The translations under genes were made by a program, and so were the position numbers. A stretch of 64,000 bases of DNA from Parcubacteria group bacterium M6-OD1-1. Its GTDB lineage: Bacteria; Patescibacteriota; Minisyncoccia; GWC2-36-17; M10-OD1-4. Location: contig LSNK01000002.1 in assembly GCA_003056085.1 (NCBI GenBank), positions 110,575 through 174,574 of the forward strand. The letters are read 5' to 3'. The notes under the pieces were generated by a model that searched no databases, was not told the origin of the DNA, and was given only the letters and a program-made list of their open reading frames with translations. Of this stretch, positions 2,971-61,040 are shown one piece after another (position 1 is the stretch's first letter; each line of letters starts with the position of its first letter).

Positions 2971-3041
2971 CTGCCAGACCTGGATTCGAACCAAGATAAC
3001 AGCTTTCAGAGAGCTGTGTCCTACCATTAGACGATCTGGCA
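2971..3041 (-). tRNA. tRNA-Gln (anticodon CUG), 71 nt, CCA not encoded
   Basis: Cloverleaf folded by hand from the minus strand. Acceptor stem TGCCAGA/TCTGGCA. Three-bp D stem GTC/GAC with loop TAATGGTAG. Anticodon stem CAGCT/AGCTG with loop CTCTGAA, giving anticodon CTG. T arm CTTGG-TTCGAAT-CCAGG. Discriminator G. Confidence 0.8.
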
Positions 3042-3133: not shown

Positions 3134-3246
3134 GTTGCACACAAAAATTGGCAATGATTTTTTGTATTATACACAAAAATTCTTTACTTTCAAATAAATT
3201 TTTATATTCTTCTATATGAATATAAAATTTCTATATTTGGGTGTAA

Positions 3247-3275
3247 TTCAAAAAAATGAGAAATTAAGGTAATAT
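3247..3275 (+). promoter_or_regulatory. putative sigma70-like promoter for element A (TTCAAA, 17 nt spacer, TAATAT)
   Basis: The -10 box and the following ~20 nt (TAATATATGACAGAACAAAATGAAAT) are conserved upstream of copy B (TAATACATAACAGAATAAATGAAAT). Confidence 0.3.
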
Positions 3276-3412
3276 ATGACAGAACAAAATGAAATTCATA
3301 ATATTGAGTAAAGACCGAGGTAAAAGCTGTGAGAGAAATTGAGTCGTAGTAACGTTACGACGAAATGAGCGAATAGCTTTTAACGAAGGTATTTGCCAAT
3401 ATTATGGATTTC
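3270..3412 (+). ncRNA. candidate structured ncRNA, copy A of a two-copy ~140 nt element; strand uncertain, plus strand favoured
   Basis: About 90 percent identical to 10577-10718. Outer 16 bp stem GAAATTCATAATATTG/CAATATTATGGATTTC. Middle stem AAAAGCTG/TAGCTTTT. Inner hairpin GTCGTAG-TAACG-TTACGAC. G-U wobbles pair only in the plus-strand RNA. Confidence 0.45.
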
Positions 3413-3413
3413 A

Positions 3414-4331
3414 TCAAACCTTGAGATATTTCTGCATAGCAATAAGCGACCCTAAAACACCAATTCCACTGCCAACAGCAAATAATATCAACCATATTTG
3501 AAAAATATTTCCCACGAAATACTCAAATAAATTAACTCCTGAGAAAAAATTTGCTATAAGCGGTGAACTGAAAAATAACATCGGAAGAACTAAAACAATC
3601 GTTACTAAAGAAGAAACGAGACCATAAAGCAAACCTTCAACCACAAACGGACCTCTAACAAACCAGTTTGTGGCGCCGACAAGCTTCATAACTCCTATTT
3701 CCTCGCGCATTGTAAAAATCGTTATTCTTATCGTGTTAAATGCAACTAAAAATGCAATTATAACCAAAACAATACTGATACTAAAACCTACCTTTCTTAT
3801 AGACGAAATAAATGAACTTAATTTATCTATAATTTCTTTATTTTCATAATAATTTATTTTGTTCACCATATCTTTGTATTGGTCTTTTTCTAAAGTTGCA
3901 ACAATACCTTCAAACTGACTCGGGTCTTTTGCCTTTATATTTAAACTCGCCTCCAGTGGATTTTCTTGAAGCGCATCCAAAGACTGAATAATAATTTCAT
4001 TTTCACTGTGTTTTTCTCTAAACTCCAACAAAGCATCATCTTCTGAAATATAGTCTACGCTTTTAACTTCACCCAAGACTAATATATCATTTTTCATATT
4101 TAAAATATCCGCTTCTTTTGTATCTTTTGTAAAATAAACAGAAACATCCACTCTGCTCTTAAGGTCGGTAATTAAAGACTCTGTCAAAACAGAAACCATA
4201 ATAAGCCCCAATATCATAAATAAAGTTACCGACAAAACAGATACCGTAGCGGTTGACAGCCATCCGTTTCTCCAGAAATTATTAAAACCGGATTTTGTTA
4301 TTCTTTTTAAAATTGTAAAAATATTTGTCAT
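3414..4331 (-). CDS. ftsX: cell division ABC transporter permease FtsX
   Basis: 305 aa with an N-terminal transmembrane helix, a periplasmic loop and three C-terminal helices (FtsX-like permease fold); directly downstream of ftsE. Confidence 0.8.
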   Translation of the reverse strand: MTNIFTILKRITKSGFNNFWRNGWLSTATVSVLSVTLFMILGLIMVSVLTESLITDLKSRVDVSVYFTKDTKEADILNMKNDILVLGEVKSVDYISEDDALLEFREKHSENEIIIQSLDALQENPLEASLNIKAKDPSQFEGIVATLEKDQYKDMVNKINYYENKEIIDKLSSFISSIRKVGFSISIVLVIIAFLVAFNTIRITIFTMREEIGVMKLVGATNWFVRGPFVVEGLLYGLVSSLVTIVLVLPMLFFSSPLIANFFSGVNLFEYFVGNIFQIWLILFAVGSGIGVLGSLIAMQKYLKV

Positions 4332-8434: not shown

Positions 8435-9106
8435 TTAGAACTGTTTTTTGTTTCTTTTTAATTCCAACAGATGTATTAAAAAGCCCAGCCAAATTCCGGA
8501 AAAAATAAAACTTGCAAATACATCAGATGGCCAATGAACACCAAGATAAACTCTGGAAAAAGCTATAAGCAGCATAATTGCGACAGATATTAATATTGCA
8601 GCTGCTTTTTCAAAGTTATTTTTTGAAGATACAAATACAAAATAAGCCAAAATACCGTAAAAAGCAACTGCTATCATCGTGTGCCCTGAAGGAAAAGAAA
8701 ACCCGTTTATAACAATCAAAGCATTTTCTGAAGATGGTCTCGCTTTTGCAAACAAAAGCTTAACAAAATAGAAAATTAAAGCGGCAACGACAGACGAAGT
8801 CAAAAATCCAAATAGAAATTCATATTTTTTTCTGAAAATAAAATATAAAAATATTAAAAAAGATAAAGAAAAAATAATAATAGTATCTGCAAAATTAGTT
8901 ATATAAATCATGACTTGAGTTAAAGCATCTCCTCTCAAAGAAAAAATAGATTCTTGGATTTTGCCGTCTATTTTATCGGTTGCATCAAAGCCGAGTAAAA
9001 TATATGAAAAACCAAGCAAAACAACCAAAAACAAAAGGTATGTAAAAAATACTGAAAGAAATTTTCTATCAAAAAAATATTTAAACTCTTTTTTAAATTC
9101 AGACAT
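8435..9106 (-). CDS. PAP2 family phosphatase (undecaprenyl-diphosphatase / PgpB-like)
   Basis: PAP2 motifs KARPSSE, PSGHT and SRVYLGVHWPSD; multi-pass membrane protein. Confidence 0.7.
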   Translation of the reverse strand: MSEFKKEFKYFFDRKFLSVFFTYLLFLVVLLGFSYILLGFDATDKIDGKIQESIFSLRGDALTQVMIYITNFADTIIIFSLSFLIFLYFIFRKKYEFLFGFLTSSVVAALIFYFVKLLFAKARPSSENALIVINGFSFPSGHTMIAVAFYGILAYFVFVSSKNNFEKAAAILISVAIMLLIAFSRVYLGVHWPSDVFASFIFSGIWLGFLIHLLELKRNKKQF

Positions 9107-10350: not shown

Positions 10351-10576
10351 ACTAAATATAACTAATTTTAAAGTACTTTAATTATATGTCAAAATATAAA
10401 AAAATTATAGAACTAATGTGGAAGTCTCTTGTAATCTTAATAGTGATATCTATGGTTGGATTTACTATATTACCATTTTTATTCTAATTTATAAGTAAAA
10501 AACTTAGAATTTTAAGCGTAGTTGAAAAACTTTTAGATTTGAGCACAGATTCAAGCTAAAAAATAAAAAACGAAAA

Positions 10577-10718
10577 TAATACATAACAGAATAAATGAAA
10601 TGCATAATATTGAGTAAAGACCGAGGCAAAAGCTGTGAGAGAGATTGAGTCGTAGTAACGCTACGACGAAATGAACGAACAGTTTTTAACGAAGGCATTT
10701 GCCAATATTATGCATTTT
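10577..10718 (+). ncRNA. candidate structured ncRNA, copy B of the two-copy element; strand uncertain
   Basis: Same three-stem architecture as 3270-3412 with compensatory substitutions: outer-stem pair 6 is U-G in A and G-C in B; the inner hairpin closes with G-U in A and G-C in B. The outer stem is followed by a U-run on both strands. Confidence 0.45.
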
Positions 10719-10719
10719 A

Positions 10720-12525
10720 TTATTTTTTAAGAACTTTAAAGTACACTTCCGGCGGTATATTAACCCTCCCTGAAGCTTTCATTTTTTGCTTTCCCTTTTT
10801 CTGCTTTTCAAGAAGTTTTTTCTTTCTCGTTATATCTCCTCCATATAAATACCCCGTAACATCTTTTCTCATGGCGGAAATATCTTCTCTTGCAAGAATT
10901 TTACCTCCTACAGCAGCTTGCAAAGAAACTGAAAAAAGCTGTCTTGGAATTATATCTTTAAGCTTTGCCACCATTTTTCTTCCCGCCTCTTGAGCTTGCG
11001 ACTTCACAATTATCCTTGAAAGAGCCTCGACTTTATCACCGGCAACCAAAATATCCATTTTAACAAGCTCTGCAGACTTAAAACCTATAAGTTTATAATT
11101 TAACGACGCATAACCGGAAGTAACTGATTTTAAATCATCAAAAAAATCAACTATAATCTCAGACAAAGGAGCTTCATATAAAAGCAAAACCTTCTGTTCA
11201 GTTAAATATTGCGTATCTTTATAAACACCTCTTGCTCTATCAAGGAGTGTCATTATACCGCCCATATATTCAATTTTAGTCATTATTTCCAATTTCACAT
11301 AGGGCTCTCTGCTTTCTGATATATTTGTAGGATCAGGCATCTGACTTGGTGAATATATCAATTTCTCTTCTCCATTTCTTTGTTTAATGTTGTAAGAAAC
11401 TGATGGAGTTGTTATCAACGGCTCTATGCCGTATTCTCTTTTTAAGCGTTCCCTTAAAATATCCATATGGAGCATACCTAAAAATCCGCACCGAAAACCT
11501 CTCCCAAACGCCTCTGACTGTTCCGGTTCAAATGTCAAAGAAGCATCATTTAAACGAAGCTTTAAAAGTCCGTCCCTTAAAAGCTCATAGTCATCTGCGT
11601 CCTGTGGAAACAAGCTTGCAAAAACAACAGGGTCTGACTCTTTATAACCGGCTAAATTTTCTTCTGCCTGATTTTTCTGCAAAGTTATCGTGTCTCCGAC
11701 TCTAACCTGGTCTATTTCTTTAAGACCCGTTGCTATATATCCTATTTGTCCTGTTAAAAGCTCTTTTTTTTCAACAAGTTGCGGCTTAAAAACCCCGCAC
11801 TCCAAAATCTCAGCTTCAGATTTTTGAACCATAAATTTAATTTTGTCATGCCGCTTCAAAGACCCATCAACTATTCTTATATTTGCTATAATTCCCTTAA
11901 AAGAATCAAAAATAGAATCAAAAATGAGAGCCTTCAAAGGCGCTTCCGTGTTGCCTCTTGGCGCGGGAACCTTTTCTATAATTTTTGCTAAAAGATTTAA
12001 AACTCCCTCCCCCGTTTTTCCTGATATTTCAAATATTTCACTCTCGTCTATCTGTAAAAATTTTGAGATTTCTTTTTTCACCTCATCCGGCATTGCGTTT
12101 GGAAGGTCAATTTTGTTCACCGCCGGGATTATAACCAAATCCTGCTTTTGCGCTTGCTCCAAAACAGCCAAAGTTTGCGCCTGCATTCCTTTTGTAGCAT
12201 CAACCAAAAGTACTGCCCCCTCAACTGCGGCAAGAGACCTTGAAACTTCATAAGAAAAATCAACGTGACCGGGAGTGTCTATGAGATTTAAAATATAATC
12301 ACTTCCGTCACTGTGTTTATAGTTCATAACCACAGGTTGCATCTTTATGGTAATACCCCTTTCTCTCTCAAGGCTCATAGTGTCCAAAAGCTGTTCCTGC
12401 ATCTTTCTTTTTTCAACTGTCCCTGTTATCTCCAAAAACCTGTCAGACAAAGTAGATTTGCCATGGTCAATATGAGCTATAATACAGAAATTTCTTATTA
12501 AACTTTGTTTGTTTTCTTCATTCAT
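10720..12525 (-). CDS. lepA: translation elongation factor 4 (LepA)
   Basis: 601 aa; GTPase motifs AHIDHGKST, DTPGH and NKID, and the LepA-specific C-terminal domain. Confidence 0.9.
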   Translation of the reverse strand: MNEENKQSLIRNFCIIAHIDHGKSTLSDRFLEITGTVEKRKMQEQLLDTMSLERERGITIKMQPVVMNYKHSDGSDYILNLIDTPGHVDFSYEVSRSLAAVEGAVLLVDATKGMQAQTLAVLEQAQKQDLVIIPAVNKIDLPNAMPDEVKKEISKFLQIDESEIFEISGKTGEGVLNLLAKIIEKVPAPRGNTEAPLKALIFDSIFDSFKGIIANIRIVDGSLKRHDKIKFMVQKSEAEILECGVFKPQLVEKKELLTGQIGYIATGLKEIDQVRVGDTITLQKNQAEENLAGYKESDPVVFASLFPQDADDYELLRDGLLKLRLNDASLTFEPEQSEAFGRGFRCGFLGMLHMDILRERLKREYGIEPLITTPSVSYNIKQRNGEEKLIYSPSQMPDPTNISESREPYVKLEIMTKIEYMGGIMTLLDRARGVYKDTQYLTEQKVLLLYEAPLSEIIVDFFDDLKSVTSGYASLNYKLIGFKSAELVKMDILVAGDKVEALSRIIVKSQAQEAGRKMVAKLKDIIPRQLFSVSLQAAVGGKILAREDISAMRKDVTGYLYGGDITRKKKLLEKQKKGKQKMKASGRVNIPPEVYFKVLKK

Positions 12526-15088: not shown

Positions 15089-17395
15089 TTAATACCCCAC
15101 TCCGATACTAAAAAATTTATCAGAATCAAAGACTCCTCTAAATTTACCCCAAGATCTTTCAGGTAAGCTATAAATAAACCCCCAACCATCCGGCAAAACA
15201 ACATCAAAGCTAAGTTCACTTTTTACACCCGGCTGAGCTTGAAAAATAAAATCAAGATCATCTCCTTTTTTGTTTTTGTTTAACTTAAATGGAAGCTTGT
15301 AAGTGTAAGATACTTCAACTTCCTCGCCCGGGCTTACATATACCCAATTTCCAAAAACTGTTTTTCCAGATTCTTTAAAAATATCAGTTTTTGTTTTTTC
15401 ATCTTTTAATGAAGAATTTACAGATGCAAAAACATCTTTATCCGACTTAAACCCGGCCTTTTTATAATCTATTGGCGCTTCGTATTTTTCGTTTGTATAC
15501 CCGCTAGCATCTAAAAGCTCGGAACCCAAAGGAACATACACTCTTAAATAACTTGAATTTACCTTATTTAACCATTCATATTCTTCGCCTCCGCCATTAT
15601 GAATTCTTTTTATTTTTACAGTATTTATTATAGAGCCGTCTTCTTCAACTTTGGTTATTTTTGTAATTTTCTGATCTATAACTCTATCCGTCTTAAAACC
15701 GTTTATATTACTTGAAACAACAGCAAGATAGTCAGAATCATCACTTTTTAATACTTCCCCTCCCCAGCCTTTTTGTAAAACAAATTTTTGACGCTTTGGC
15801 TGATTTGCCCATATTAAAATATCTTTTTTATCTAAACTTGATACGAAGACATTAAAAACTTTTGTTAATTCCTCTTGGGATAAATCTGAAAATTTTTCAA
15901 AGAGTTTTGGAAGCATATCATCTAAAATCTTTTTTGGTCTGTTTATAGTTTTATCATAATTCTTTTCAATTTCATACTGCAGTGTATCAACAAAATTATC
16001 AGCATTTAAAACAACTCCGTACTCCGGCATATTTACGGACCCCACCACTCTTAAAATTCTTTCTATCACTTTTTCATTTATAGCTATGACGCCATCCGGA
16101 GTCGGCCCTCCCGCCTTTTCATAAAAAAATGCTATTTTTTTTGCAGAAGTTGGAAAATCCAAGAACCAATTTGCATCATGAGTGCTCCATGCGGTTGATA
16201 TTTTTTGAATAGGACGCGGAGGAATCGCTTTGTAAGACAACTGCCCATCTAAATTATAGATGTCATCCATAAATATATCTTTTATATAGCCAAACTCAGA
16301 ACTTAAAAGACCATACGAACCCAAAAAACCTCCCGTCGCTCTTGCTTCAGATGTATTTTGAGAAACTATAAGAAATTTCTTGGGATTATCTTCTCCTAAA
16401 AACCACAAAACAAAATCTGAATATTCAGATAAAGTATCCACTTTATTTTTTATATCGGGAAATTTATTTTTAAGCTCCCAAATGTTTTTTTGTAAATCTT
16501 CCGGAAAGTCATAAGGATCAATCTCTTTTAAACTTATCTCTGCATCTTTTAAAGCGGTTTTTGACTTTTCTATACCGGAAGTCATAGAAGCTAAATTCAC
16601 ACCAAATGAGTTATCTCCCTTGATGCCCTCTTTTTTAAAAATAGAATCACTTGATATTTTAAGGAGAGGTTCAACAGCTTCAGACAATGTCTTGCCTGCA
16701 TAAGAAAGCTGAACTCCCACATTTATTAAATTATTTGATGAGTTTACTTCAGACGAAAACGGCAACCACAAAAAAGCCCCCAAAACCGAAGCCCCTGCGC
16801 TGTTTGCCTCTTTTTGAGCCAAAGAAAACTTTTTATGAGCCTCAGAAAACTCAAATCCTGCATTTTTAAAGTCTAAATTTTTAAGATACTTTTGGGCGGA
16901 AACTATATTTTCATATGCAGAAGCGCTGTTTTTTATAATATTTCCCTTCGCCTCAACTCCTTTTTTATAAAATAAAAATAAAAGCGATGATGCTAAAATT
17001 AAAATTACAACTAAAAAAACGGCTAAAATTTTAAAATTAAATTTATTTTTAATTTCCGGTTCTTCAACCTCATAATAATCATCATCTTTAAATTCATTTT
17101 CACGTCTTTTTTCAGCCTGACGATTGGACTGCCAAGTTGATTTTTTATACACACTTTGTGATATTTTAACGGGAGCATCTCTTGTAAAAGAATTATCATA
17201 AGCTGAGACAGCTTTAAAATCACTTTCATTTTTAATATCATCTTTTACAAAAGTCGCTTTAATTTCAGATTTTGGAACGCCAAAACCCCCTGCTTTTTCT
17301 TCCTCCTCTGCTAATGTTTCAGCAGACAAAGAAGCTTCGGCAGGCGGCTTTATATCATAAAGTTTCTTTTCTATATTGCACCTTGGTGATCTCAT
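15089..17395 (-). CDS. large membrane-anchored hypothetical protein (disordered acidic N-terminus, one transmembrane helix, ~600 aa extracytoplasmic domain; possibly DUF4012-like)
   Basis: 768 aa; transmembrane helix FKILAVFLVVILILASSLLFLFY; no catalytic motif recognised. Confidence 0.4.
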   Translation of the reverse strand: MRSPRCNIEKKLYDIKPPAEASLSAETLAEEEEKAGGFGVPKSEIKATFVKDDIKNESDFKAVSAYDNSFTRDAPVKISQSVYKKSTWQSNRQAEKRRENEFKDDDYYEVEEPEIKNKFNFKILAVFLVVILILASSLLFLFYKKGVEAKGNIIKNSASAYENIVSAQKYLKNLDFKNAGFEFSEAHKKFSLAQKEANSAGASVLGAFLWLPFSSEVNSSNNLINVGVQLSYAGKTLSEAVEPLLKISSDSIFKKEGIKGDNSFGVNLASMTSGIEKSKTALKDAEISLKEIDPYDFPEDLQKNIWELKNKFPDIKNKVDTLSEYSDFVLWFLGEDNPKKFLIVSQNTSEARATGGFLGSYGLLSSEFGYIKDIFMDDIYNLDGQLSYKAIPPRPIQKISTAWSTHDANWFLDFPTSAKKIAFFYEKAGGPTPDGVIAINEKVIERILRVVGSVNMPEYGVVLNADNFVDTLQYEIEKNYDKTINRPKKILDDMLPKLFEKFSDLSQEELTKVFNVFVSSLDKKDILIWANQPKRQKFVLQKGWGGEVLKSDDSDYLAVVSSNINGFKTDRVIDQKITKITKVEEDGSIINTVKIKRIHNGGGEEYEWLNKVNSSYLRVYVPLGSELLDASGYTNEKYEAPIDYKKAGFKSDKDVFASVNSSLKDEKTKTDIFKESGKTVFGNWVYVSPGEEVEVSYTYKLPFKLNKNKKGDDLDFIFQAQPGVKSELSFDVVLPDGWGFIYSLPERSWGKFRGVFDSDKFFSIGVGY

Positions 17396-17442
17396 ATAAA
17401 TAAATTATATCATAAACTAACAAGGATTGTAATTTGAATTTT

Positions 17443-18555
17443 TTAAATTTCTTGGTATAAGTTTATGGTTTTTTGAACACAATCTGACCAACTATATTTC
17501 TTAATTATTTTTTGACCCCGTTTAACCAATTCGTCTTTTAAATTTTTATTATCTAAAATAAGATTTATCTTTTCTGCGATATCATCTGAATTTTTAGGAT
17601 CAAAATAAATCGCGGACTCTCCTAAAACTTCGGGAAGCGAACCGACATCTGAAACCGCAACAGGAGTTTCGTAGCTTAATGCTTCAAGAGGCCCAAAACC
17701 AAAACCTTCAACAAAAGAAGGTAAAACAAAAACCTCCGCATTTTTTAAAAAAAGCCCCATTTCCTCATTTTTTATAAATCCCGGTCTTATAATTTCACTG
17801 CCAAGCTCCAACTCCTGCCAAACCTCCCTCACCTCGGGATAGAACCTATCCTCCTTCCCGCCCAAAACCAAAGTTAAATCTTTTTGATATTTTCTTTTTA
17901 AAACATTAAAAGCTTTAACAAGACCAACTAAATTTTTATGATCTCTCCAAACTCCCGTATAGAAAATAAAAGGTTTTTTTATTTTGTATTTTTTAAAAAA
18001 TTCTTTATTTGAAATATAGAATTCTTTATTTTTATTTAAATTTGGAATTCCTTCATACACAACCTCTATCCTTTTTGGATCTATTTTATAATATTTTAAT
18101 ATTTCACCTTTTGTATATTCTGAAACCGCAATTATTTTTTCACTTTTAAAAATACCTCTTTTAAAAACAATCCAAAAAGCCAATCTTCTTAAAAAAGAAT
18201 TCATCTTATGACCCGGAAAATATTTGGGAGTTAGATCATGAACTGTTGTTATTCTTTTGCCGGAATAAAATATCGGCGCATTAAAACTTGGAAAATGCAT
18301 CAAATCTAATTTTTGCCTTAGAATATTAAAAAGAAATTTAGTCTGCTCGGAAAAAGAATACCATCTGCTGTTTGCCAAAACCTTTTTGAAATTTTCCGCC
18401 GGCAATTTGAACTCTAAAAACTGCTCTTTTCTTAAAAACAAAACATATTGATTGCTTTTATCAATTTTTGCAATATTTTCTATTAAGTTTTTTATATAAA
18501 GCCCTATACCGGTTTGCTTTTCACCAAGCATACGAGCATCTATTCCTATCTTCAT
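17443..18555 (-). CDS. glycosyltransferase family 4
   Basis: GT-B C-terminal motif EGFGFGPLEALSYETPVAVSDVGSLPEV. Confidence 0.75.
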   Translation of the reverse strand: MKIGIDARMLGEKQTGIGLYIKNLIENIAKIDKSNQYVLFLRKEQFLEFKLPAENFKKVLANSRWYSFSEQTKFLFNILRQKLDLMHFPSFNAPIFYSGKRITTVHDLTPKYFPGHKMNSFLRRLAFWIVFKRGIFKSEKIIAVSEYTKGEILKYYKIDPKRIEVVYEGIPNLNKNKEFYISNKEFFKKYKIKKPFIFYTGVWRDHKNLVGLVKAFNVLKRKYQKDLTLVLGGKEDRFYPEVREVWQELELGSEIIRPGFIKNEEMGLFLKNAEVFVLPSFVEGFGFGPLEALSYETPVAVSDVGSLPEVLGESAIYFDPKNSDDIAEKINLILDNKNLKDELVKRGQKIIKKYSWSDCVQKTINLYQEI

Positions 18556-18780
18556 AAAAATATCTTTAGATATAAAATTTATACATTTATAATGTGTTTT
18601 ACACCACTAATGTGGTTGACACTGTGGATAACTATATGTTATATTTACCAATAGAAGCATGCAATAATAGCTTACGAGATGCTGTGATGTTCCCTCAAAG
18701 CATTTGAGACTTAAGTTGCAGGCAACCATCTTGCAAGACGCTGCTTCTATTAAAAAAAGTGAGTTTTTTGCTCGCTTTTT

Positions 18781-19455
18781 TTATTTGTTATATTTCTTAT
18801 CCCAGTGATCTTTGAATAATTCTTTTCCATCTTTTAAAAGATTGTTCTTTAAGATATTAAAACACTCTCCTCCTAATTCTTTCCCCTCCAAATGCCATGC
18901 TAATGCTCCGACAATCCAATCTGCGATTTGTATATTTGCATCAAAAGTTGAATTAATCATTTCAATTTGAATAATAGTTCCTGCAGGAAGCTGCGGTGCA
19001 AGTCGATTTTTTAAAATACTTTTAAATTCTGATGGCTTAATTCCTTTCAAGTGCCTTTTGTCACAAAATACCCTAAATTCCAAATCATTCGTTGGAAGAT
19101 ACATTTCTAATGTCTCTCCAATAATATTAGTATAAAGACGACCACTTTCTAATTTATTTTTATTCTTATAAGTATCTGGAATATTTTTTCTTAATAAATA
19201 AGAGTAGTGTATACGAACATCCAAGTCAGAAATATATTTTAATGTTTTTAATCTTAGTTTTGAATTTATCTTAACTTCAGAAAATTTTATTTCTGGTTGA
19301 TTTCGCATCTTTCTTGGAAAACGTGTTTTATGCCATGAACGAAATCGTTTATTCGTTCTATTTTTATCACCAACAATAAAAGAACCAACAACAAAATATT
19401 CTTCGTTATTATGCTTTGTAAATTGTCCACTTTCATCTAAAAAAATACAAGCCAT
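18781..19455 (-). CDS. DUF3800 family protein
   Basis: N-terminal MACIFLDESG and C-terminal IQIADWIVGA match the DUF3800 signature (predicted RNase H-like fold). Confidence 0.5.
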   Translation of the reverse strand: MACIFLDESGQFTKHNNEEYFVVGSFIVGDKNRTNKRFRSWHKTRFPRKMRNQPEIKFSEVKINSKLRLKTLKYISDLDVRIHYSYLLRKNIPDTYKNKNKLESGRLYTNIIGETLEMYLPTNDLEFRVFCDKRHLKGIKPSEFKSILKNRLAPQLPAGTIIQIEMINSTFDANIQIADWIVGALAWHLEGKELGGECFNILKNNLLKDGKELFKDHWDKKYNK

Positions 19456-19651
19456 TACCTCTTAATTTATTTTACAAAAAAATTTAATACTTTCTTACAA
19501 CTTATCTGAATATAATGATATTTCTACATCCATTATACCATAAAAACACCCGACTAATTGAGTGTATTTCCTGAAATGATTATAAAGATAACTGAAAATT
19601 AAAATTATTTAAATCTAACCTTCGTAGTTTTATTCTTTAATTTAAGTTACT

Positions 19652-21853: not shown

Positions 21854-22981
21854 TTATATTTCTTTTAAAATTTTTATTGTTTCCTCTCCTGTTTTCTCCC
21901 AGTTAAATTTCTCTGCCTGTTTTAAACCTCTCTGTTTTAAAATATCGGAAAGACCCTCATCTTCCAATATCATATCCAACGCCTCTGCAATTTCCGATGG
22001 TTTGTATGGATCTATCATAATACCGGCATCTCCAACTACTTCGGGGAGCGATGAACAGTTTGAAACAACAACCGGCACACCGCAAGCCATCGCTTCAAGC
22101 GGCGGAAACCCAAACCCCTCAAAAAAACTTGGATAAACAAAAATCTTCGCTAAATTATATAAATAAATCTTATCTTCTTGATTTATAAATCCTACAAACA
22201 AAATATCCTCTGAAAATTTGGAGTTTTCCGCCCTTTTTATTATATCATCAAAAAGCCAACCAAATGTTCCGGAAATAACCAAGCTTATTTTCTTTTTTTC
22301 TCTCACAGCTTCAAATGCTTCAATAATGCCTATTATATTTTTTCTCGGCTCAATAGTGCCAAGATACAAGATAAAATTATTTGGTAAGTTATATTTCTCC
22401 TTAACTCTGTTTAAATTTGGGTTATCTTTTGAAACAGGCTTAAAACTTTCATCCACTCCGGAATAAATCACTGAAATTTTTTCTTCTTTTATATTATAAA
22501 AATTCACAATGTCATTTTTTGTTGACTCTGACATTGCTATTATTTTATCTGAATATTTTGCCTGCTTTTTAGGATTTTGGAGGAAATGCCAATATCTTTT
22601 TTTAAGTGAAAAAAATTCAGGATAATGCAAAAAAGAAATATCATGAAAAACGGTAATTTTCCTGCAATTTTTACTTAAAGGAGCTGCTAAAAAATGCGGG
22701 CTGAAGAAAACATCAACCCCGCCCAATAATTTATCAAACTTAGGAGAGTTCAAAAGCAAAAACATATCCAGAAATTTATTTGGAACATTAAAATCTTTCA
22801 ATAAAACATTTTTATTATTTAAAACCTCATTTTCAAAATTAACTTTTAAAAATGCATTGTAAAAAAGAAAAAAATCGTCTTCCTTGTGTTTTGTAAGTTC
22901 TCGCAAAATATTAAGAGTGTACTCCTCCACTCCCGTGTGCCTGCCTCGCGCTATTGTTCTTAAATCAAATCCTATTTTCAT
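21854..22981 (-). CDS. glycosyltransferase family 4
   Basis: EGFGFPPLEAMACGVPVVVSNCSSLPEVVGDAG. Confidence 0.75.
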   Translation of the reverse strand: MKIGFDLRTIARGRHTGVEEYTLNILRELTKHKEDDFFLFYNAFLKVNFENEVLNNKNVLLKDFNVPNKFLDMFLLLNSPKFDKLLGGVDVFFSPHFLAAPLSKNCRKITVFHDISFLHYPEFFSLKKRYWHFLQNPKKQAKYSDKIIAMSESTKNDIVNFYNIKEEKISVIYSGVDESFKPVSKDNPNLNRVKEKYNLPNNFILYLGTIEPRKNIIGIIEAFEAVREKKKISLVISGTFGWLFDDIIKRAENSKFSEDILFVGFINQEDKIYLYNLAKIFVYPSFFEGFGFPPLEAMACGVPVVVSNCSSLPEVVGDAGIMIDPYKPSEIAEALDMILEDEGLSDILKQRGLKQAEKFNWEKTGEETIKILKEI

Positions 22982-23180
22982 GCCAATATTATTAAAATTT
23001 ACGAGCTCAATGCGAAGTAAATTTTACTATAACATTGAGCACCTCTCATTTGGACTGATAAAAAACAATTTATAACTTTAAAATAAATAATATGTCTTTT
23101 TTACAAATCCAAGTGATGGATGAAGTTTTACTGCTGAATTTTATTCACCTAATGGCTTCAAGATTCAGATAAAGCCCTTA
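22982..23180 (-). repeat. intergenic structured element, R family copy 1 (core CATCACTTGG ... CCAAATGAGAGG); its 5' part is read through by the upstream GT4 gene
   Basis: Shares hairpins, the CCTCACTTGG/CCAAGTGAGG core and the GGTGCTCAATGTT box with five other copies (see findings). Confidence 0.6.
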
Positions 23181-24249: not shown

Positions 24250-24454
24250 ACTAATGTTGTTTTAATTATAAACAAGACTTAATGTTGGAAACAGTAACTA
24301 AATTACAACATTTAGCACCCCTCACTTGGACTAACAATTAAAAATTAAAACTTAATATTAACGCCAAAATCTTGCTTTAAAAACCAAGTGAGGGATTAAG
24401 GTTTTGCTCCCAAAATTTCAAGGCTTAGCCTTGAAATTTTGGGCAAAGCCCTTA
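24250..24454 (-). repeat. intergenic structured element, R family copy 2
   Basis: Minus strand TAA-GGGCTTTG, a 16 bp hairpin, AAAACCTTAATC, CCTCACTTGG, a 60 nt spacer, CCAAGTGAGG, GGTGCTAAATGTT. Confidence 0.6.
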
Positions 24455-28965: not shown

Positions 28966-29100
28966 TTTTAATATAAAACTTCTAAAATCGAGGACAGGTC
29001 GCAGCCAAAAGCGAGATTGCGAAGGCAAGACGTATTTAAAAATACGTTGAAGTCGAGCAAGGAGCTTTTGGCAAGAGATGTTCAGATTTTAGAAGTTTTA
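28966..29100 (-). other. highly structured intergenic element (nested inverted repeats) between pilT and recJ; strand unknown
   Basis: Outer 15 bp pair AAAACTTCTAAAATC/GATTTTAGAAGTTTT. Middle pair GCCAAAAGC/GCTTTTGGC. Inner hairpin ACGTATTT-AAA-AATACGT. Confidence 0.4.
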
Positions 29101-30111
29101 TTATTCTATGAGGCCTTTAGAGCGCAACTCGGCTTTAGACTGAGCCATGGTTATCATACCATCTCTTGAGCCCATCTGCATAACAGAAAAAATATTTGCT
29201 ATTCTGTGTTCTCTTATGAGACTTGAAACAGCTGGTGTGTTTATCATAATCTCATATGATGCTATTCTCCCTCCTTCTTTTTTCTTAAGCAACTCTCTTG
29301 AAACAACAGCTATAAGGTTGCTTGCGAGTTGATTTAATATTTGTTGAGACTGAATAGCCGGAAACATGTTTACTATTCTTTCTATGGACTCAATAGTAGA
29401 AGAGCTATGGATAGTTGCAAACACCAAATGCCCTGTTTCTGCCGCCATGAGAGCCGTTTCTATCGTCTCAAGATCCCTAAGCTCACCTATCATAATAACA
29501 TCCGGATCCTGCCTGAATGAAGCTCTTAAAGCATCATAAAACGAGTGACTATCCACTCCTATTTGCCTTTGCTCTATCACACTTTGCTTTTTTGGATAAA
29601 CAAATTCAACCGGATCCTCAATTGTTATTATATGAGACTTTTTCTCAGAATTTATCATATTAATCAAAGAAGCAATAACAGAAGACTTACCGGAAGCCGT
29701 AGAACCGGTTAATAAAACCAATCCTTTTTTAAGTTGTGCAAATTTCATAAGAACCGGGGAAAAACCTAAAAATTCCGGAGTTGGAATATCACTTGAAATT
29801 ATACGAATAGACAAAGCAAACATTCCTTGCTGAAGATGAATATTTGTCCTAAACCTGGTTTCTTCATGTTTGTAAATAATATCAAACTCATAACCTTGAG
29901 CAACTCTTTCTCTTGATTCTTCACTTGGTAAAATATTAAAAACAAATTCTGCCAAAAGACTTGCATCCACTTCTTCTTGACTCAAAAACTCAAGATTTCC
30001 ATGTACTTTAACAGAGGGCTTCTGTCCGGCAATAAAATAAATATCAGAGGCGTCTTTTTTTACAGCCACAGTTAAATAATTATTAAATTTTTCCATAGCT
30101 TTATTATCCAT
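29101..30111 (-). CDS. pilT: type IV pilus twitching motility ATPase PilT family
   Basis: Walker A GSTASGKSS, Asp box, His box and overall PilT length. Confidence 0.75.
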   Translation of the reverse strand: MDNKAMEKFNNYLTVAVKKDASDIYFIAGQKPSVKVHGNLEFLSQEEVDASLLAEFVFNILPSEESRERVAQGYEFDIIYKHEETRFRTNIHLQQGMFALSIRIISSDIPTPEFLGFSPVLMKFAQLKKGLVLLTGSTASGKSSVIASLINMINSEKKSHIITIEDPVEFVYPKKQSVIEQRQIGVDSHSFYDALRASFRQDPDVIMIGELRDLETIETALMAAETGHLVFATIHSSSTIESIERIVNMFPAIQSQQILNQLASNLIAVVSRELLKKKEGGRIASYEIMINTPAVSSLIREHRIANIFSVMQMGSRDGMITMAQSKAELRSKGLIE

Positions 30112-42212: not shown

Positions 42213-42427
42213 ACCAGTGTTGTTTTAATTATTTAATGAGACTCAATGTTGAGTGAAATAATTAAATTTCAACATTGAGCATCCCTCACTTGGATTAATA
42301 AAAGATAAATTATAAGTTTAAGTAAATAATATATCTTTTTTAAAAAACCCAAGTTAGGAGTAAGGTTTTCTATCCAAGTTTTTACTTCTGATTAACATCA
42401 GAACCAAAAACTTGGATAAAACTCTTA
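42213..42427 (-). repeat. intergenic structured element, R family copy 3, lying between rpsH and rplF
   Basis: Minus strand TAA-GAGTTTTA; hairpin TCCAAGTTTTTGGTTCTGAT-GTTA-ATCAGAAGTAAAAACTTGGA; AAAACCTTACTC; CTAACTTGG; 55 nt spacer; CCAAGTGAGG; GATGCTCAATGTTGA hairpin. Confidence 0.6.
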
Positions 42428-42817
42428 CCAAACTTCGCATAAAACTTCTCCTCCAATTTTATTTTTTCTTGCTTCTTTATTGCTTATAACACCCATTGGA
42501 GTTGAAAGTATTGAAATGCCAAATCCTTGCCTAATATCAAAAAGCTCTGAATGCCCCTTGTAAATCCTCTGGCTTGGTCTTGAAACTCTCTTAAGCTCTG
42601 AAATATAAGATTCTCCTTCTGTATTGTATTTTAATTTAATCTCAATTATTTTTTTAATCTTTTTTCCTTTTTTGTCACAAGAATCAATAAATCCCTCTTT
42701 TTTAAGAACGCTTGCAATTGACATTTTCATTTTTGAATAAGGAATATGCACAGTTGGTTTTCCAACTGCTTTTGAATTTCTTATTCTTGTTAACATATCT
42801 GCTATTGGGTCTGTCAT
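42425..42817 (-). CDS. rpsH: 30S ribosomal protein S8
   Basis: MTDPIADMLTRIRNS. Confidence 0.9.
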   Translation of the reverse strand: MTDPIADMLTRIRNSKAVGKPTVHIPYSKMKMSIASVLKKEGFIDSCDKKGKKIKKIIEIKLKYNTEGESYISELKRVSRPSQRIYKGHSELFDIRQGFGISILSTPMGVISNKEARKNKIGGEVLCEVW

Positions 42818-46421: not shown

Positions 46422-46904
46422 CTATTTATCTTTTTTATTAATCTGCTTCTTATCTTCTTTTTTAACCGACTTTTTCACCTTCTTGTCTGTTACTTCTTCA
46501 GTCTTTTCTTTACTATTGTCAATTTCTTTATCTAATTTATTTTTTTCCTTCTTTTCTTTCGGTTCGGTTTTTTCTTTATCTTCCAATACCAAAGTTATAT
46601 GAGAAGTTCTTTTTCTTATATGAAAAGCCCTCCCCATAGCTCTTGGCATAATTCTTTTTAAAGTCGGACCTTCATTTACAAATAACTCTGAAATATATAA
46701 ATCTGACTCTTTCAACTTAAAATTATGTTCTGCATTTGCGATTGCAGAATTTAAAAGCTTAAGCATACTCTTTGAAGATCTTTTAATCAAAAAATGAAGT
46801 TGGTGTTTTGCGTCCGCAACATCAAGACCCCTCACCAAATCTGCTACTAATCTGACTTTTCTTGGTGAAATTCTTAAGTTGTTCAACTTCGCTTTTACCT
46901 TCAT
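46422..46904 (-). CDS. rplV: 50S ribosomal protein L22 with Lys/Glu-rich C-terminal tail
   Basis: RISPRKVRLVADLVRGLDVADAKHQLHF. Confidence 0.9.
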   Translation of the reverse strand: MKVKAKLNNLRISPRKVRLVADLVRGLDVADAKHQLHFLIKRSSKSMLKLLNSAIANAEHNFKLKESDLYISELFVNEGPTLKRIMPRAMGRAFHIRKRTSHITLVLEDKEKTEPKEKKEKNKLDKEIDNSKEKTEEVTDKKVKKSVKKEDKKQINKKDK

Positions 46905-47077
46905 GAAAATATTATTTTAATTATTTAACGAAACTCAATTTGGATTAATAAAAGACAAGTTATAAGTTTAAGTAAATAATATGTCTTTTTTTACAAACCC
47001 AATTGAGAGGTAAGTTTTTTTATCCAAGTTTTTACTTCCGATTAACATCGGAATCAAAAACTTGGATAAAACCCTTA
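46905..47077 (-). repeat. intergenic structured element, R family copy 4, lying between rpsS and rplV
   Basis: Same architecture as copy 3, but core arms changed to CTCAATTGG / CCAAATTGAG. Hairpin 1 carries CCGAT/ATCGG instead of CTGAT/ATCAG. Confidence 0.6.
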
Positions 47078-47353
47078 CTTTTTCTGATCTAAAACTTTTT
47101 GAATTTTTCCTCCGTGTCTCACAAACTTCTTTGTCGGAGAAAACTCTCCAAGCCTGTGTCCTACCATATCCTCTGTTACAAACACCTCCAAATGCTGTTT
47201 TCCATTATGGACACCAAATGTATGACCAACCATTTCCGGAGATATCATAGAAGCCCTGGCCCAAGTTTTGATAACCTCGCCTCGCTTTGCGTTTAATACC
47301 TTTTTTGCCAATTTTTCATCTACGTATGGTCCTTTTTTTAAACTTCTTGACAT
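47075..47353 (-). CDS. rpsS: 30S ribosomal protein S19
   Basis: [15 protein letters not shown]...[12 protein letters not shown]. Confidence 0.9.
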
Positions 47354-48212: not shown

Positions 48213-48493
48213 AATAATAAATTTTTATTTTTCTAAAAACTAATCTGTTTGAGTGTAATTTAAGAAAAAAGCGAGGAGTGAAACGAAAATGTACTTATTG
48301 GGTACATTGAGTAAACTCAATATGAAATGAATTTTACTATAATATTGAGTACTCCTCACTTAGACCTACAAAAAATAAATTACGAAATCTACATACATAA
48401 TATATTCTTTACAAACCCAAGTGAGGAATAAGGTTTGCTAACCAAATTTTTACCTCCGATAAATCGGAAATAAAAATTTGGAGCAAGCCCTTA
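48213..48493 (-). repeat. intergenic structured element, R family copy 5 (longest, 278 nt), lying between rplW and rplB
   Basis: Minus strand TAA-GGGCTTGCT; hairpin CCAAATTTTTA...TAAAAATTTGG; AAACCTTATTC; CTCACTTGG; spacer; CTAAGTGAGG; AGTACTCAATATT hairpin. An extra GTGAGGAGT/ACTCCTCGC pair lies in the 3' tail. Confidence 0.6.
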
Positions 48494-52226: not shown

Positions 52227-52598
52227 CTAAAACGGCAAATCTTCTAACTTAACTTCTTTTAAATCTTTCTTTATTTTTTCCACCTCATGATAACCTTCAA
52301 ATTGATTTTTAAGCTCAATCTCCCTTGATTTTACTATCTTTTCTCTGTTTATCTTAAGCTCATCTTCTATGACGCTGTGAATTGCATCTATATCATTATC
52401 ATGAAATTCAGTCTCTTTTTTAAAAAAATCTTCATTAAATCCATCCGAATCATCCAATAGATAATCACTCTCTATGGTTTTTTTCATATTTCTCGTATAG
52501 TCCTCAAAAGGAACCACAACATAGGATGGCTTTCCATCTTCCATAACAACTATACCTTTTTTAGATACATCCAATACCTTTTTTATATCATCAAGCAT
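52227..52598 (-). CDS. hypothetical acidic protein located between fusA and tuf
   Basis: 123 aa, Asp/Glu-rich; no motif. Good ORF context with an R-family element upstream. Confidence 0.35.
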   Translation of the reverse strand: MLDDIKKVLDVSKKGIVVMEDGKPSYVVVPFEDYTRNMKKTIESDYLLDDSDGFNEDFFKKETEFHDNDIDAIHSVIEDELKINREKIVKSREIELKNQFEGYHEVEKIKKDLKEVKLEDLPF

Positions 52599-52795
52599 GT
52601 TAATGTTATTAAAATTTACGAGCTCAATGCGAAGTAAATTTTACCATAACATTGAGTACCCCTCACTTGGATCATTAAAAAATAAATTACAACCTCTTGA
52701 AGCAAGTACTGTGTTTTTTATAACCCAAGTGAGAGGTAAGGTTTTGTTGCTGAATTTTAAAACCTTTAAGCTTCAAAATTCAGACAAAGCCCTTA
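52599..52795 (-). repeat. intergenic structured element, R family copy 6 (fusA stop codon to the 52598 gene)
   Basis: 3' ~75 nt nearly identical to copy 1. Core CCTCTCACTTGG / CCAAGTGAGGGG. Confidence 0.6.
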
Positions 52796-54895: not shown

Positions 54896-55081
54896 AAATT
54901 TTAAATTAAAAAGTAAAAATACAAAAATTAAAAACTTTTAAAGTTTATTATAGATATAAAACTTTCAAAATTGAGTACGCTTCGAGGAGCGGCTGAGGAA
55001 CAAAGCAAACCGTACTTAAAAGTACGGCGAAACGAGTACCGGAATCCGCGACAAAAAAGCGTGCCAATTTTCAAAATTTTA

Positions 55082-55549
55082 TTACCAAGAAAAATGAGCA
55101 AATGCTTTATTAGCCTCCGCCATTCTCTGAGTATCGCTTCTTTTCTTCATAGCAGATCCTTCGCCTTTAGCTGCAAGCAATATTTCATCTGCAAGTCTAT
55201 GAGCCATTGAACTTCCTTTTTTTGCTTTAGATGCAATTATGACCCACCTTAAAGCTAAAGTAAGTTTTCTGTCTCCCCTAACTTCCCTTGGAACTTGATA
55301 GTTAGCTCCACCAATTCTTTTTGATTTTATTTCTAAAACAGGCGAAATATTTCTTATTGCTAAATCAAAAGTCTCAATCGGATCTGACTTTGTTGCTTCT
55401 TCAACTTCCGCTAATGCCCCATAAACGATTTTCTCAGCAATGGAAAGCTTGCCATCAAGCATAATGGTTTTTATTAGTTTAGTGATAGTAATATTATTAT
55501 ATTTCCTATCAGGATCTACCGTTCTTTTAAATTTTTGTTTTCTTCTCAT
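55082..55549 (-). CDS. rpsG: 30S ribosomal protein S7
   Basis: MRRKQKFKRTVDPDRKY... Confidence 0.9.
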   Translation of the reverse strand: MRRKQKFKRTVDPDRKYNNITITKLIKTIMLDGKLSIAEKIVYGALAEVEEATKSDPIETFDLAIRNISPVLEIKSKRIGGANYQVPREVRGDRKLTLALRWVIIASKAKKGSSMAHRLADEILLAAKGEGSAMKKRSDTQRMAEANKAFAHFSW

Positions 55550-55620
55550 TTCCTTATTATTTCCCTATTATTTAAATTTCCTTATTATTTCCTTATTAAT
55601 TTAATTTCCCTATTATTTCC
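55550..55620 (-). repeat. tandem purine-rich repeats (about six AAUAAGGAAAU / AAUAGGGAAAU units on the coding strand) in the rpsL-rpsG spacer
   Basis: Forward ttattatttccctattatttaaatttccttattatttccttattaatttaatttccctattatttccctatt. Each unit carries an SD-like AGGA or GGGA. Confidence 0.6.
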
Positions 55621-56037
55621 CTATTCAGCTTTTGGTCTTTTAGCGCCATACTTAGACCTCTCCTGTTTCCTTCCTTCAACTCCAGTAGCGTCCAACACCC
55701 CTCTTACAACATGATATCTTACTCCGGGTAAATCTTTCACCCTTCCTCCTCTTATTACAACAACTGAATGCTCTTGCAATGTATGACCTTCTCCTGGAAT
55801 ATATGCTGTAACTTCCATTCCGTTTGTCAATCTTACTCTCGCAATTTTTCTTAAAGCTGAATTAGGTTTTTTAGGAGTTGTTGTTGAAACTTTGGTGCAT
55901 ACACCTCTTTTAAATGGAGACGAGTAACCTGTTGGTTTATTTTTTAAATTATTAAAACCACGCATCATTGCCGGAGATTTTGATTTCTTCGTAGAAGTTT
56001 TTCTTTTTTTTCTTACTAACTGATTTATTGTTGGCAT
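55621..56037 (-). CDS. rpsL: 30S ribosomal protein S12
   Basis: [13 protein letters not shown]...[10 protein letters not shown]. Confidence 0.9.
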
Positions 56038-57027: not shown

Positions 57028-57216
57028 ATGGCTCGATCATGTCCAATTTGTGAAAAAACATCAAAAATGAATACAGTACTTGTTAAACTTCGCGGAAATT
57101 ACAACCCAACATGCAAAAGAAGAAAATACCCAAATCTACAATGGGTAACGATAGGTAAAAAAAGAATCAAAGCTTGCACAAAATGCATCAGAACTATGAA
57201 CAAACAACCTAAATAA
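57028..57216 (+). CDS. rpmB: 50S ribosomal protein L28 (start moved to the internal Met; the ORF track starts at 56965)
   Basis: MARSCPICEKTSKMNTVLVKLRGNYNPTCKRRKYPNLQWV matches the L28 pattern (C-x-x-C, TKRR, PNLQ). Confidence 0.65.
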   Translation: MARSCPICEKTSKMNTVLVKLRGNYNPTCKRRKYPNLQWVTIGKKRIKACTKCIRTMNKQPK

Positions 57217-57224
57217 ACTCATTA

Positions 57225-57260
57225 AAAAAAACACCTCCAAAAAAGAGGTGTTTTTTTTAA
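57225..57260 (+). terminator. intrinsic terminator after rpmB
   Basis: AAAAAAAACACCTCCAAAAAAGAGGTGTTTTTTTT. Confidence 0.7.
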
Positions 57261-57673
57261 TGAGTTTATGTTAAATTTTTACATAATGAGATTTAGCATA
57301 AACCCATAAGTCCCACCAAAACATAATATGAACGTAAGCAAAAAATCCAAGTGGGTGCTCGCAGCATTAAACCCTGGACTAAGAGCTCACATGAAAATCT
57401 TTTTCTACTGCAGTTTTAAATTTTGACTGCAAACAATTCAAATTTCGTCATCTATAAACCATATAAACTCCTCCATTTTCATTGTTTTCGTTCAAAATTA
57501 AAAAACTTCGCAACGAAAAAAACTTTCAAGTGAGCTCTACCAGAAGCTTAAAGCAATGTAAAGCTCCCAAAAAGACATATTTGTCCTTAGTTCATTTAAT
57601 GTCTGATGGGACACTTTTATTATATATCTTTAAAAAAAGAAAATCAAATAAAAATCATCTCAGATTTTTAACC

Positions 57674-59581: not shown

Positions 59582-60301
59582 CTAAAAATAAAACTGGTTT
59601 TTACCAAAAAGAACTGAGCTTGATGTTTTTGACCCGTGATGATTGATTTTTAAAACATCAACGTCAATATCAAGACCTGAATTTGATAAGTTTAACTCCT
59701 CTTTTAACTCAGCATCACCGGAAAACAAAAATTTCCTATCAAAAAATTTTAAAATCAATGCTAAAGAAGTATTATTTGGATTTTCCACTTTCACCCCTGA
59801 CATGTCAGAAAAAGGATATAAAACATCCATTGAAACAAATTCACCTAAATTTATTTGAACTCCCGCCTTTGCTTCTATTTTATTTATATTTTTTTCCTTT
59901 ACTAACCCGGACAACTCTTTGTAAAGGCTGTTTTTGTATTCAATGCTGGAAAATAATATATTGTCCACTTTATATCTTTTTAAAACATCAATGAGTCCGA
60001 AAATATGATCTTTTTGGGGATGCGTTATCACTAAAAGGTTTATTTCTCTATCATAAAAAGGCATAACTTTAGAAAGCTCAGATAAAACGGAATTGTCCGG
60101 ACCTCCGTCTATCAAAACCTGAATTTTTTCAGGTGTTTCAATGAAAATCGCATCCCCTTGCCCTACATTTAAAAAATAAATTTTTAAATTTCCATCTGCG
60201 CCATACTTAAAAATAAAACTCCAAATAAATATCACAATAATCAACACTCCACCCCAAAAATATAATTTATTTTTTGTATTTTTATTAAAATTAAAAATCA
60301 T
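59582..60301 (-). CDS. comEC: ComEC/Rec2 C-terminal metallo-beta-lactamase domain fragment, separated from the comEC body by a transposase insertion
   Basis: One transmembrane helix, then MBL-fold motifs VITHPQKDH...GDAE...HHGSK. Its start codon directly abuts palindrome P1. Confidence 0.6.
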   Translation of the reverse strand: MIFNFNKNTKNKLYFWGGVLIIVIFIWSFIFKYGADGNLKIYFLNVGQGDAIFIETPEKIQVLIDGGPDNSVLSELSKVMPFYDREINLLVITHPQKDHIFGLIDVLKRYKVDNILFSSIEYKNSLYKELSGLVKEKNINKIEAKAGVQINLGEFVSMDVLYPFSDMSGVKVENPNNTSLALILKFFDRKFLFSGDAELKEELNLSNSGLDIDVDVLKINHHGSKTSSSVLFGKNQFYF

Positions 60302-60307
60302 CCCCTC

Positions 60308-60332
60308 AACTTAGGGGTGCAACCCCTAAGTG
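60308..60332. repeat. REP-like palindrome P1 (CTTAGGGGTGCACCCCTAAG)
   Basis: Perfect 20 nt palindrome between the comEC MBL fragment and the transposase stop. Confidence 0.7.
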
Positions 60333-60346
60333 ATTTAACGCTAAAA

Positions 60347-61024: not shown

Positions 61025-61040
61025 ATACTTAATATTGTAC

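Follow-up and report, generated by a model that had tools for sequence, protein, structure and literature searches.

A previously undescribed family of rod-shaped non-coding elements, of uncertain kind, in Parcubacteria

Introduction

Several described systems come close to the element presented here, a rod-shaped non-coding hairpin found in four copies (A to D) in a 64,000-nt stretch of Parcubacteria group bacterium M6-OD1-1 (contig LSNK01000002.1, positions 110,575 to 174,574; hereafter the window, meaning the whole stretch analyzed) and in related metagenomes. The first are the repetitive extragenic palindromic (REP) and REPIN sequences, mobilized by REP-associated tyrosine transposases (RAYT). 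Like the rod, they are hairpin-forming non-coding repeats of about 100 nt, situated outside genes and often just behind them; they are multi-copy, can persist vertically and leave no target-site duplication, and they are recognized as a folded single strand, as may hold for the rod. The ends of the rod, however, are not two short REP palindromes with a GTAG-type tetranucleotide, as its conserved bases are internal (the invariant positions are AUUGAG, CG..G, CGUA/UACG, GAA, AC.AAG and CC.AU) and its ends vary. REP families are usually species-specific, whereas the rod family spans lineages so deep that their ribosomal protein S7 is only 54% identical. No RAYT gene was detected among the recurrent neighbors in the window and the short loci covered. 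RNA-folding miniature inverted-repeat transposable elements (MITEs), such as Correia/NEMIS, ERIC and RUP, are also dispersed imperfect palindromes of 100-150 bp with terminal inverted repeats, present or absent between relatives and co-transcribed with neighboring genes. Terminal inverted repeats exist in the rod too, as the outer stem covaries and terminal sequence is common to unrelated loci. Unlike MITEs, the rod has no target-site duplication and shows a gene-orientation bias, an exact placement at stop codons, strand-specific purine loops and an excess of G·U pairs.

Integron attC sites, summarized as imperfect hairpins of the 57-141-nt class (PMC5737381), share with the rod a position at the 3' end of open reading frames (ORFs), a functional folded strand that runs antisense to the ORF, and a structure that is better conserved than the stem sequence, but the rod lacks their R-box cores, arrays, cassette genes and nearby integrase. 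Finally, the orphan RNA motifs DUF3800-I to -XI (Weinberg et al., 2017; PMC5737381) are, like the rod, covarying structures that emerged from comparative genomics of uncultured bacteria, although the rod is not tied to one protein family, is multi-copy and patchy, and is missing from Rfam 15. Our full-text literature searches revealed no comparable element. Against Rfam 15, the four window copies gave no match, either at the gathering threshold or at E<=10, and ten diverse members had none at E<=1. An earlier reading of the same DNA, made from the sequence alone, had announced a candidate novel non-coding RNA. We therefore describe a family of rod-shaped non-coding elements of Parcubacteria (Patescibacteria, or candidate phyla radiation, CPR), previously undescribed and of uncertain kind, which is new to Rfam and resembles REPINs, MITEs and attC sites in its geometry or lifestyle while lacking, in each case, one of the features that define them.

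Results

The sequence-only reading had reported two copies, about 90% identical. Both are present as placed, but the count was too low, since an unfiltered covariance model of A and B revealed four copies in the window, all on the plus strand, and a model of the family gives exactly four as well. Copy A is located at 3286-3418 (R1 155.5 bits, R2 117.8 bits) and copy B at 10592-10724 (R1 161 bits, R2 120.5 bits). Copy C, at 28970-29105 (R1 56 bits, R2 69.1 bits), is diverged, and copy D, at 54953-55086 (R1 43.3 bits, R2 86.8 bits), is both diverged and partly degenerate. A and B had been said to lie 1-2 nt beyond a stop codon; instead, the 3' ends of all four copies overlap the stop codon of a minus-strand gene, namely ftsX for A (TCA, 3414-3416), lepA for B (TTA, 10720-10722), a PilT/T2SSE-type ATPase gene for C (29101-29103) and rpsG, encoding S7, for D (55082-55084). 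The genes around A are ftsX/ftsE and those around B are lepA and a divIC/ftsL-like gene. Copy C is established between the ATPase gene and the start of recJ (28931), and copy D within the str operon, between rpsG and the start of fusA (EF-G; 54895), leaving gaps to the next start codon of 38 and 58 nt, respectively.

Copies A and B are about 90% identical over about 135 nt, and pairwise alignment extends the likeness to about 45 nt of left flank on the plus strand (3238-3285 for A, 10545-10591 for B). This flank holds a TAATAT/TAATAC box and, read in gene sense, forms a U-rich trailer after the hairpin. At 90% identity with the flank included, yet behind unrelated genes, A and B are recent duplicates. 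The outer stems of C and D are unlike those of A and B in sequence, with the pairing kept. A chance origin is excluded, because zero matches to the 28-nt core are expected by chance and covariation is seen in 20 sequences. Two coding interpretations were also considered. A minus-strand ORF of 64 aa (10504-10698) over copy B, previously called spurious, is indeed so, as it has no family match and is absent from copy A. A 17-codon ORF was rejected too, given that the outer-stem ATG from which it starts in A and B is missing from C and D.

The three-stem structure drawn earlier for A and B was recovered. Folded as plus-strand RNA, they reach -50.1 and -53.1 kcal/mol, respectively (z about -11, with no shuffle as good), while their minus strands reach -32.3 and -33.4 kcal/mol. 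Copy C follows the same rule (-57.5 kcal/mol on the plus strand vs. -43.0 on the minus), whereas copy D, with its mismatches, folds worse on the favored strand (-38.7 vs. -43.6 kcal/mol). To assess covariation, 20 distinct members were aligned with MAFFT without fitting to any structure. From this structure-agnostic alignment RNAalifold regained the rod, with double-sided changes in 31 of 37 pairs. Standard pairs fill 90.7% of the cells, compared with 69.5% after shuffling and 33-42% when the partners are slid, and 159 cells carry a double-sided change against 46.7 in shuffled alignments, a value that none of 500 shuffles reached. The rod structure is strongly supported by this pattern of covariation.

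The element, about 100-135 nt in length, is a long imperfect hairpin with a variable outer stem around three conserved modules, which are connected by freely covarying stems. Module 1 is AUUG-A-G(U) paired with (G)C-CAAU, module 2 is (U)CGAGG opposite AAC(A/G)AAG, and module 3 is CUGAG-NCGUAC-loop-GUACGN-(U/C)GAAG, whose CGUA/UACG stem is invariant among the aligned members. Two wobbles are conserved, U·G at columns 25/119 in 12 of 20 members and G·U at columns 61/80 in 10 of 20. The variants at loci L020 and L032 keep the core of about 100 nt with a short outer stem.

It had been stated that the substitutions between A and B are compatible with pairing only on the plus strand. In agreement with this, one pair shows double compensation (U·G to G-C) and four switch between G-C and G·U, with the RNAalifold consensus left unbroken. 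The GA(A)GG(U/C)A motifs, however, change from T to C at two sites, and this produces C·A and A·C mismatches in B. In copy A's own fold these sites are U-A and A-U pairs, and since the changes break them, the comparison of A with B alone is weaker strand evidence than was claimed. The wider family, on the other hand, bears out the proposal of selection on plus-strand pairing, that is, on the strand opposite to the flanking genes. The model-aligned consensus pairs include 59 cases of G·U against 21 of A·C. In a strand-symmetric test, in which folding allowed Watson-Crick pairs only and single mismatches within helices were then classified, G·U exceeded A·C by 26 to 5 (p=2e-4) and purine·purine exceeded pyrimidine·pyrimidine by 26 to 6; the loops are 76% purine. 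The better fold is found in the orientation opposite to the neighboring gene in 19 of 20 copies, and G exceeds C in every copy. The plus strand of the window is otherwise C-rich (GC skew -0.22), so that mutational bias would predict the opposite of a G-rich favored strand. DNA energy parameters give an asymmetry of the same sign, though smaller. Selection on pairing, as these counts indicate, acts on the strand opposite to the host gene. Weinberg et al. (PMC5737381) cautioned that single-stranded RNA and single-stranded DNA motifs are bioinformatically inseparable, and we consider that the caution applies to the rod as well.

A context census was made on 26 distinct copies. The stop codon of a convergent ORF is overlapped or abutted (-9 to +3 nt) by 19 of them, and two more (L015 and L030) abut the stop of a co-directional ORF with their 5' end. 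The other five comprise two copies less than 90 nt from a contig end, one with a secondary 85-nt insertion and two short-stem variants. The host genes are diverse and of housekeeping type (S7, S12, LepA, FtsX, ribonucleotide reductase, peroxiredoxin, UppP and others). No recurrent partner gene was detected near the copies, as ORF clustering gave only the synteny of the str locus. Locus L026 contains two copies, 6 kb apart and in opposite orientations, each antisense to its own gene, and hence orientation follows the gene rather than the replichore. The placement at stop codons is exact and the orientation is linked to the gene.

Further copies had been set beforehand as a test of the element, and they were found in the window and in metagenomes. 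A family pattern derived from the conserved blocks, which gave no chance match in the shuffled window, was scanned against metagenomes and led to 28 loci, nearly all of them full-length members by covariance models. In total, 20+ further members come from Azambacteria-like and Kaiserbacteria-like Parcubacteria metagenomes, and on some contigs two copies lie within a few kb. Two pattern scans of viral and phage contigs returned no member, and a loop-based pattern run on representative genome contigs, a set in which the source species was not included, gave only a chance match in GC-rich coding sequence. Other long A+T-rich hairpins, at 8628-8740 (+) of locus L013 (31 bits) and at 57210-57273 of the window (22-25 bits), match the model weakly on both strands and were rejected as members, being generic hairpins.

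The LepA and EF-G of the window are of Patescibacteria/Parcubacteria type, near Candidatus Azambacteria, and syntenic loci were compared in relatives whose LepA or EF-G is 82-90% identical. In about 190 kb of these close relatives the family model found a single copy, in L013. The lepA-divIC spacer lacks copy B in L005, L006, L008, L009 and L010, and lepA-site spacers in relatives measure 118-154 nt vs. 370 nt in the window. At the ftsX site the element is likewise absent, with a spacer of about 83 nt vs. 373 nt. The rpsG-fusA site is empty in three of four relatives (spacers of 77-98 nt), and L013 carries there a full copy, identical to copy D in site and orientation (52.8 bits), with folds of -55.7 antisense and -43.4 sense. 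A strain with 99% identical LepA was considered as an empty site; it has copy B with 2 substitutions and hence offers no boundary information. Different junctions of the str operon (rpsL|rpsG, rpsG|fusA) are occupied in different lineages, and the terminal sequence ATAAAACTTTCAAAATTG...CAATTTTGAAAGTTTTAT recurs at unrelated loci and in different organisms. The family is multi-copy and patchily distributed, with gain and loss of copies among close relatives.

The most divergent clade that bears the element (L017, L021, L033 and L039) is near Candidatus Kaiserbacteria, and its S7 is about 54% identical to that of the window. A named Kaiserbacteria genome has the element between rpsL and rpsG, overlapping the stop codon of rpsL, and L017 has copies behind both an S12-like ORF and S7. 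Locus L021 is recombinant, with an S7 resembling that of L033 and downstream DNA resembling that of L017. It also contains an extra 85-nt insertion (about 3580-3664), with a near-perfect hairpin (GAAATGAAAATGGAAGCCC...GGGCTTCCATTTTCATTTC), that parts the element from the S7 stop codon. Its combination of an L033-like S7 with an L017-like element was examined as a case of transposition and set aside in favor of this recombinant origin.

Other known RNA classes were compared and set aside. Tandem G·A pairs are possible for CUGA/GAAG, as in a K-turn or box C/D motif, but the covariation of columns 31/109 and the invariant C-G at 32/108 indicate a continuous helix with no 3-nt bulge. Regarding box C/D or TIGR-like guide RNAs, the loops of the rod are conserved rather than variable, with no array and no Nop-domain neighbor; TIGR and bridge RNAs occur in arrays or are linked to a transposase (PMC12045711). 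The 6S RNA is a rod of about 180 nt, single- or low-copy, with a large central bubble, while our element has no Rfam 6S match, four copies in 64 kb and only small internal loops on the favored strand. A resemblance to group II intron domain V (GAGCCGUA...UACGG) was dismissed, being unsupported by Rfam and variable at the position that follows GAG. Finally, a diversity-generating retroelement, retron or bridge RNA was rejected, as no reverse transcriptase or recombinase is adjacent and the differences between A and B are not adenine-specific.

Some further features of the window and its relatives were recorded. A DUF3800-V RNA (RF02964, 75.6 bits) is located at 18653-18748 (+), 33 nt past the stop of a minus-strand DUF3800 gene (18781..19455); its geometry, convergent and behind the gene, is that of the rod. 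A second family of intergenic repeats, of about 100-200 nt, occurs at 22979-23129, 24260-24404, 42224-42428, 46901-47078, 48289-48463 and 52596-52771. Many of its copies lie in the ribosomal-protein cluster, it harbors a CTCAATG...CATTGAG hairpin, its segments CCCTCACTTGGA and TCCAAGTGAGGG pair at long range, and it has no Rfam match at gathering threshold. Four copies of a perfect palindrome, AACTTAGGGGTTG(A/C)ACCCCTAAGTT, are found at 60289-61086, 226-282 nt apart, between small genes. The rpsL-rpsG spacer is filled by a 28-nt tandem repeat (55548-55625; 2.8 copies, 90% matches, unit ATTTCCTTATTATTTCCCTATTAATTAA). In the relative L009 (LepA 69% identical), a serine recombinase and a REP_ORF2-G2P gene, followed by restriction-modification genes, stand directly after ftsX and a tRNA (17362-19601), probably an integrated mobile element at the tRNA. 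Strong promoter-like sites on the minus strand were detected at 3166-3193 (TTGAAA-16-TATAAT, 11/12 matches; for the tRNA at 2971-3041, beyond copy A) and at 10365-10392 (TTGACA-16-TAAAAT, 11/12 matches; for the divIC/ftsL-like gene, beyond copy B).

Discussion

The reading that we favor, tentatively and at somewhat less than even confidence, is that of a dispersed, probably mobile, palindromic element, whose favored strand, in the form of a transcript or of folded single-stranded DNA, is recognized by a protein. We base it on the dispersal of the copies, their gain and loss, the covarying structure, the strand asymmetry, the gene-linked placement and orientation, and the case against a dedicated transcript. 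The element would be a mobile or duplicative repeat with a lifestyle like that of REPINs and MITEs, without the defining features of either, and its favored strand would be the substrate of a trans-acting protein reading the sequence-conserved boxes and the purine bulges. It would persist mainly in the orientation that gives the host mRNA only the weaker-folding, pyrimidine-looped complement, carried as a hairpin of the 3' untranslated region (UTR) or between cistrons, the surviving orientation being the one least disruptive for the host mRNA. In the Kaiserbacteria-like clade the order in gene sense is S7 stop codon, element, about 20 nt and a strong canonical terminator, and since the terminator comes after the element, the host mRNA carries the element's complement.

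Several observations weigh against this reading. Wobbles of the G·U type that are conserved at fixed positions characterize RNA more than DNA sites. No direct repeat that would represent a target-site duplication was found at the ends of A to D, of the L013 copy or of L029a, and no transposase or recombinase recurs near the copies within the few kb available per locus. The single-stranded DNA transposons of the IS200/IS605 group put their active strand on the lagging-strand template. With co-directional genes this means the sense strand, whereas the rod favors the antisense one. Furthermore, the rpsG copy of the Kaiserbacteria-like clade has been kept vertically, with compensatory changes, across S7 proteins 80-97% identical, and a copy is present at rpsG also in a clade whose S7 is only 54% identical. 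A copy thus kept and compensated argues for a function in place rather than for a decaying selfish repeat.

The same facts bear on a second explanation, the main rival, possible although on the unlikely side, in which the rods are an independently transcribed family of small non-coding RNAs, read opposite to the neighboring gene, with the purine-looped rod as a protein-binding scaffold; the overlap with stop codons would then result from genome compactness alone, or from cis-antisense pairing with the 3' end of the mRNA. The strand-specific excess of G·U, the purine-rich loops, the conserved wobbles and the strong covariation are in line with such an RNA, as are the loop sequences kept between clades with S7 only about 54% identical, the compensatory evolution of orthologous rpsG copies and the retention in L020 and L032 of the core without a long outer stem. 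At some loci the favored strand is certainly transcribed, because copy B and the copies of L015 and L030, the latter two in operons, are co-oriented with genes. Copy B sits 104 nt downstream of a conserved ORF for a 33-aa membrane peptide (10386-10487, +; translation MSKYKKIIELMWKSLVILIVISMVGFTILPFLF*), convergent with lepA, whose mRNA, owing to this upstream and co-oriented position, would enter copy B in the favored orientation. Orthologues of this ORF overlap the 3' end of lepA in five relatives, and it is probably an unannotated small protein gene.

The TAATAT/TAATAC sequence in front of A and B had been interpreted as a -10 box, and an AATTAA(A)GGTAATA(T/G)-like box in L018 stands 27-28 nt from TTGAG, as in A and B, which would suit a small RNA gene. 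However, the box has no -35 partner, the scanner called no sigma-70-like promoter there on the plus strand of A or B, B and L018 have a base other than T at its last position, and the TAATA(T/C/G) box at 27-28 nt from the core is restricted to A, B and L018. There is no room for a promoter in L017, L021, L033, L039 and L031, where the 15-25 nt upstream in the favored orientation end at a terminator hairpin, and the GC-richer members have no promoter room in this orientation either. Moreover, transcription from the copies at rpsL/rpsG and rpsG/fusA would converge on, and collide with, a highly expressed operon, and the distribution among close relatives is patchy. A dedicated transcript is disfavored, as no promoter stands at a fixed distance and the terminator comes after the element in gene sense. 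From the original proposal of a novel non-coding RNA, what endures is a conserved structured element absent from Rfam, without support for a promoter of its own. A free-standing small RNA gene is thus one among several readings, and a dispersed, probably mobile element, recognized as a folded single strand, accounts for the data no less well.

Improbable, in our view, is a cis-acting element of the host mRNA, a hairpin in gene sense at the stop codon that would end, process or stabilize the transcript, or couple translation termination to the unfolding of the 3' UTR. It would account for the start at a stop codon in 21 of 26 copies and for the gene-element-terminator layout of the Kaiserbacteria-like clade, where the sense RNA must contain the element; the sense RNA still folds to -32 to -62 kcal/mol, and a U-rich tract follows the element in gene sense at A, B and L018. 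Nevertheless, helices read in gene sense contain about five times more C·A than G·U and the conserved wobbles become C·A, a mismatch spectrum that runs contrary to the one expected of a sense RNA helix under selection and that disfavors this explanation. Nor is a role in termination supported. A bidirectional terminator had been suggested for copy B, but no terminator-like sites were called at A and B, and a U-run on the plus strand exists in B only. At C and D the next genes are so close (38-60 nt) that a promoter has no room, and the element cannot terminate efficiently there. An intrinsic terminator was likewise rejected for the family, as no short G+C-rich stem-loop with a U-tract was called at A and B and the Kaiserbacteria-like clade has a separate canonical terminator. 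Relatives, besides, do without the element.

An attC-like recombination site, that is, a hairpin of the antisense DNA strand at an ORF 3' end used by a tyrosine recombinase, is highly improbable: the geometry matches (ORF 3' end, stop overlap, antisense folded strand, unpaired bases), the asymmetry holds with DNA parameters and one subfamily has AAC...GTT near its ends, but this resemblance is absent from A, B, the Kaiserbacteria-like clade and L016, RYYYAAC/GTTRRRY cores are not general, the copies are solitary and not in consecutive spacers, the neighbors are not cassettes but core genes (S7, S12, LepA, FtsX) whose synteny is conserved, no integrase is nearby, and attC sites are far less conserved in their internal sequence.

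The CPR/Patescibacteria are a large, uncultured and poorly understood group with tiny genomes and little spare DNA, in which a conserved, covarying and multi-copy element is unlikely to be meaningless. Its position at the stop codon and its orientation opposite to the gene are kept even within the rpsL-rpsG-fusA operon; the signs of selection are uncommonly strong and the rule of placement is striking. It may be, although we consider it doubtful, that the family represents a new and widespread CPR/Parcubacteria class of protein-binding structured RNA, or a new folded single-stranded DNA site, installed at gene 3' ends including those of the str operon, with three purine-rich modules read by a partner and a function in place that is not selfish. 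If the element acts as RNA, it would add a structured RNA class with a protein partner. If it is mobile, it would reveal an unusual rule of targeting or selection (gene ends, gene-directed orientation and no target duplication), together with a recognition structure specific for a single strand. The covariance model can in either case be used to annotate these elements in CPR genomes, preventing the annotation of spurious ORFs such as the one over copy B.
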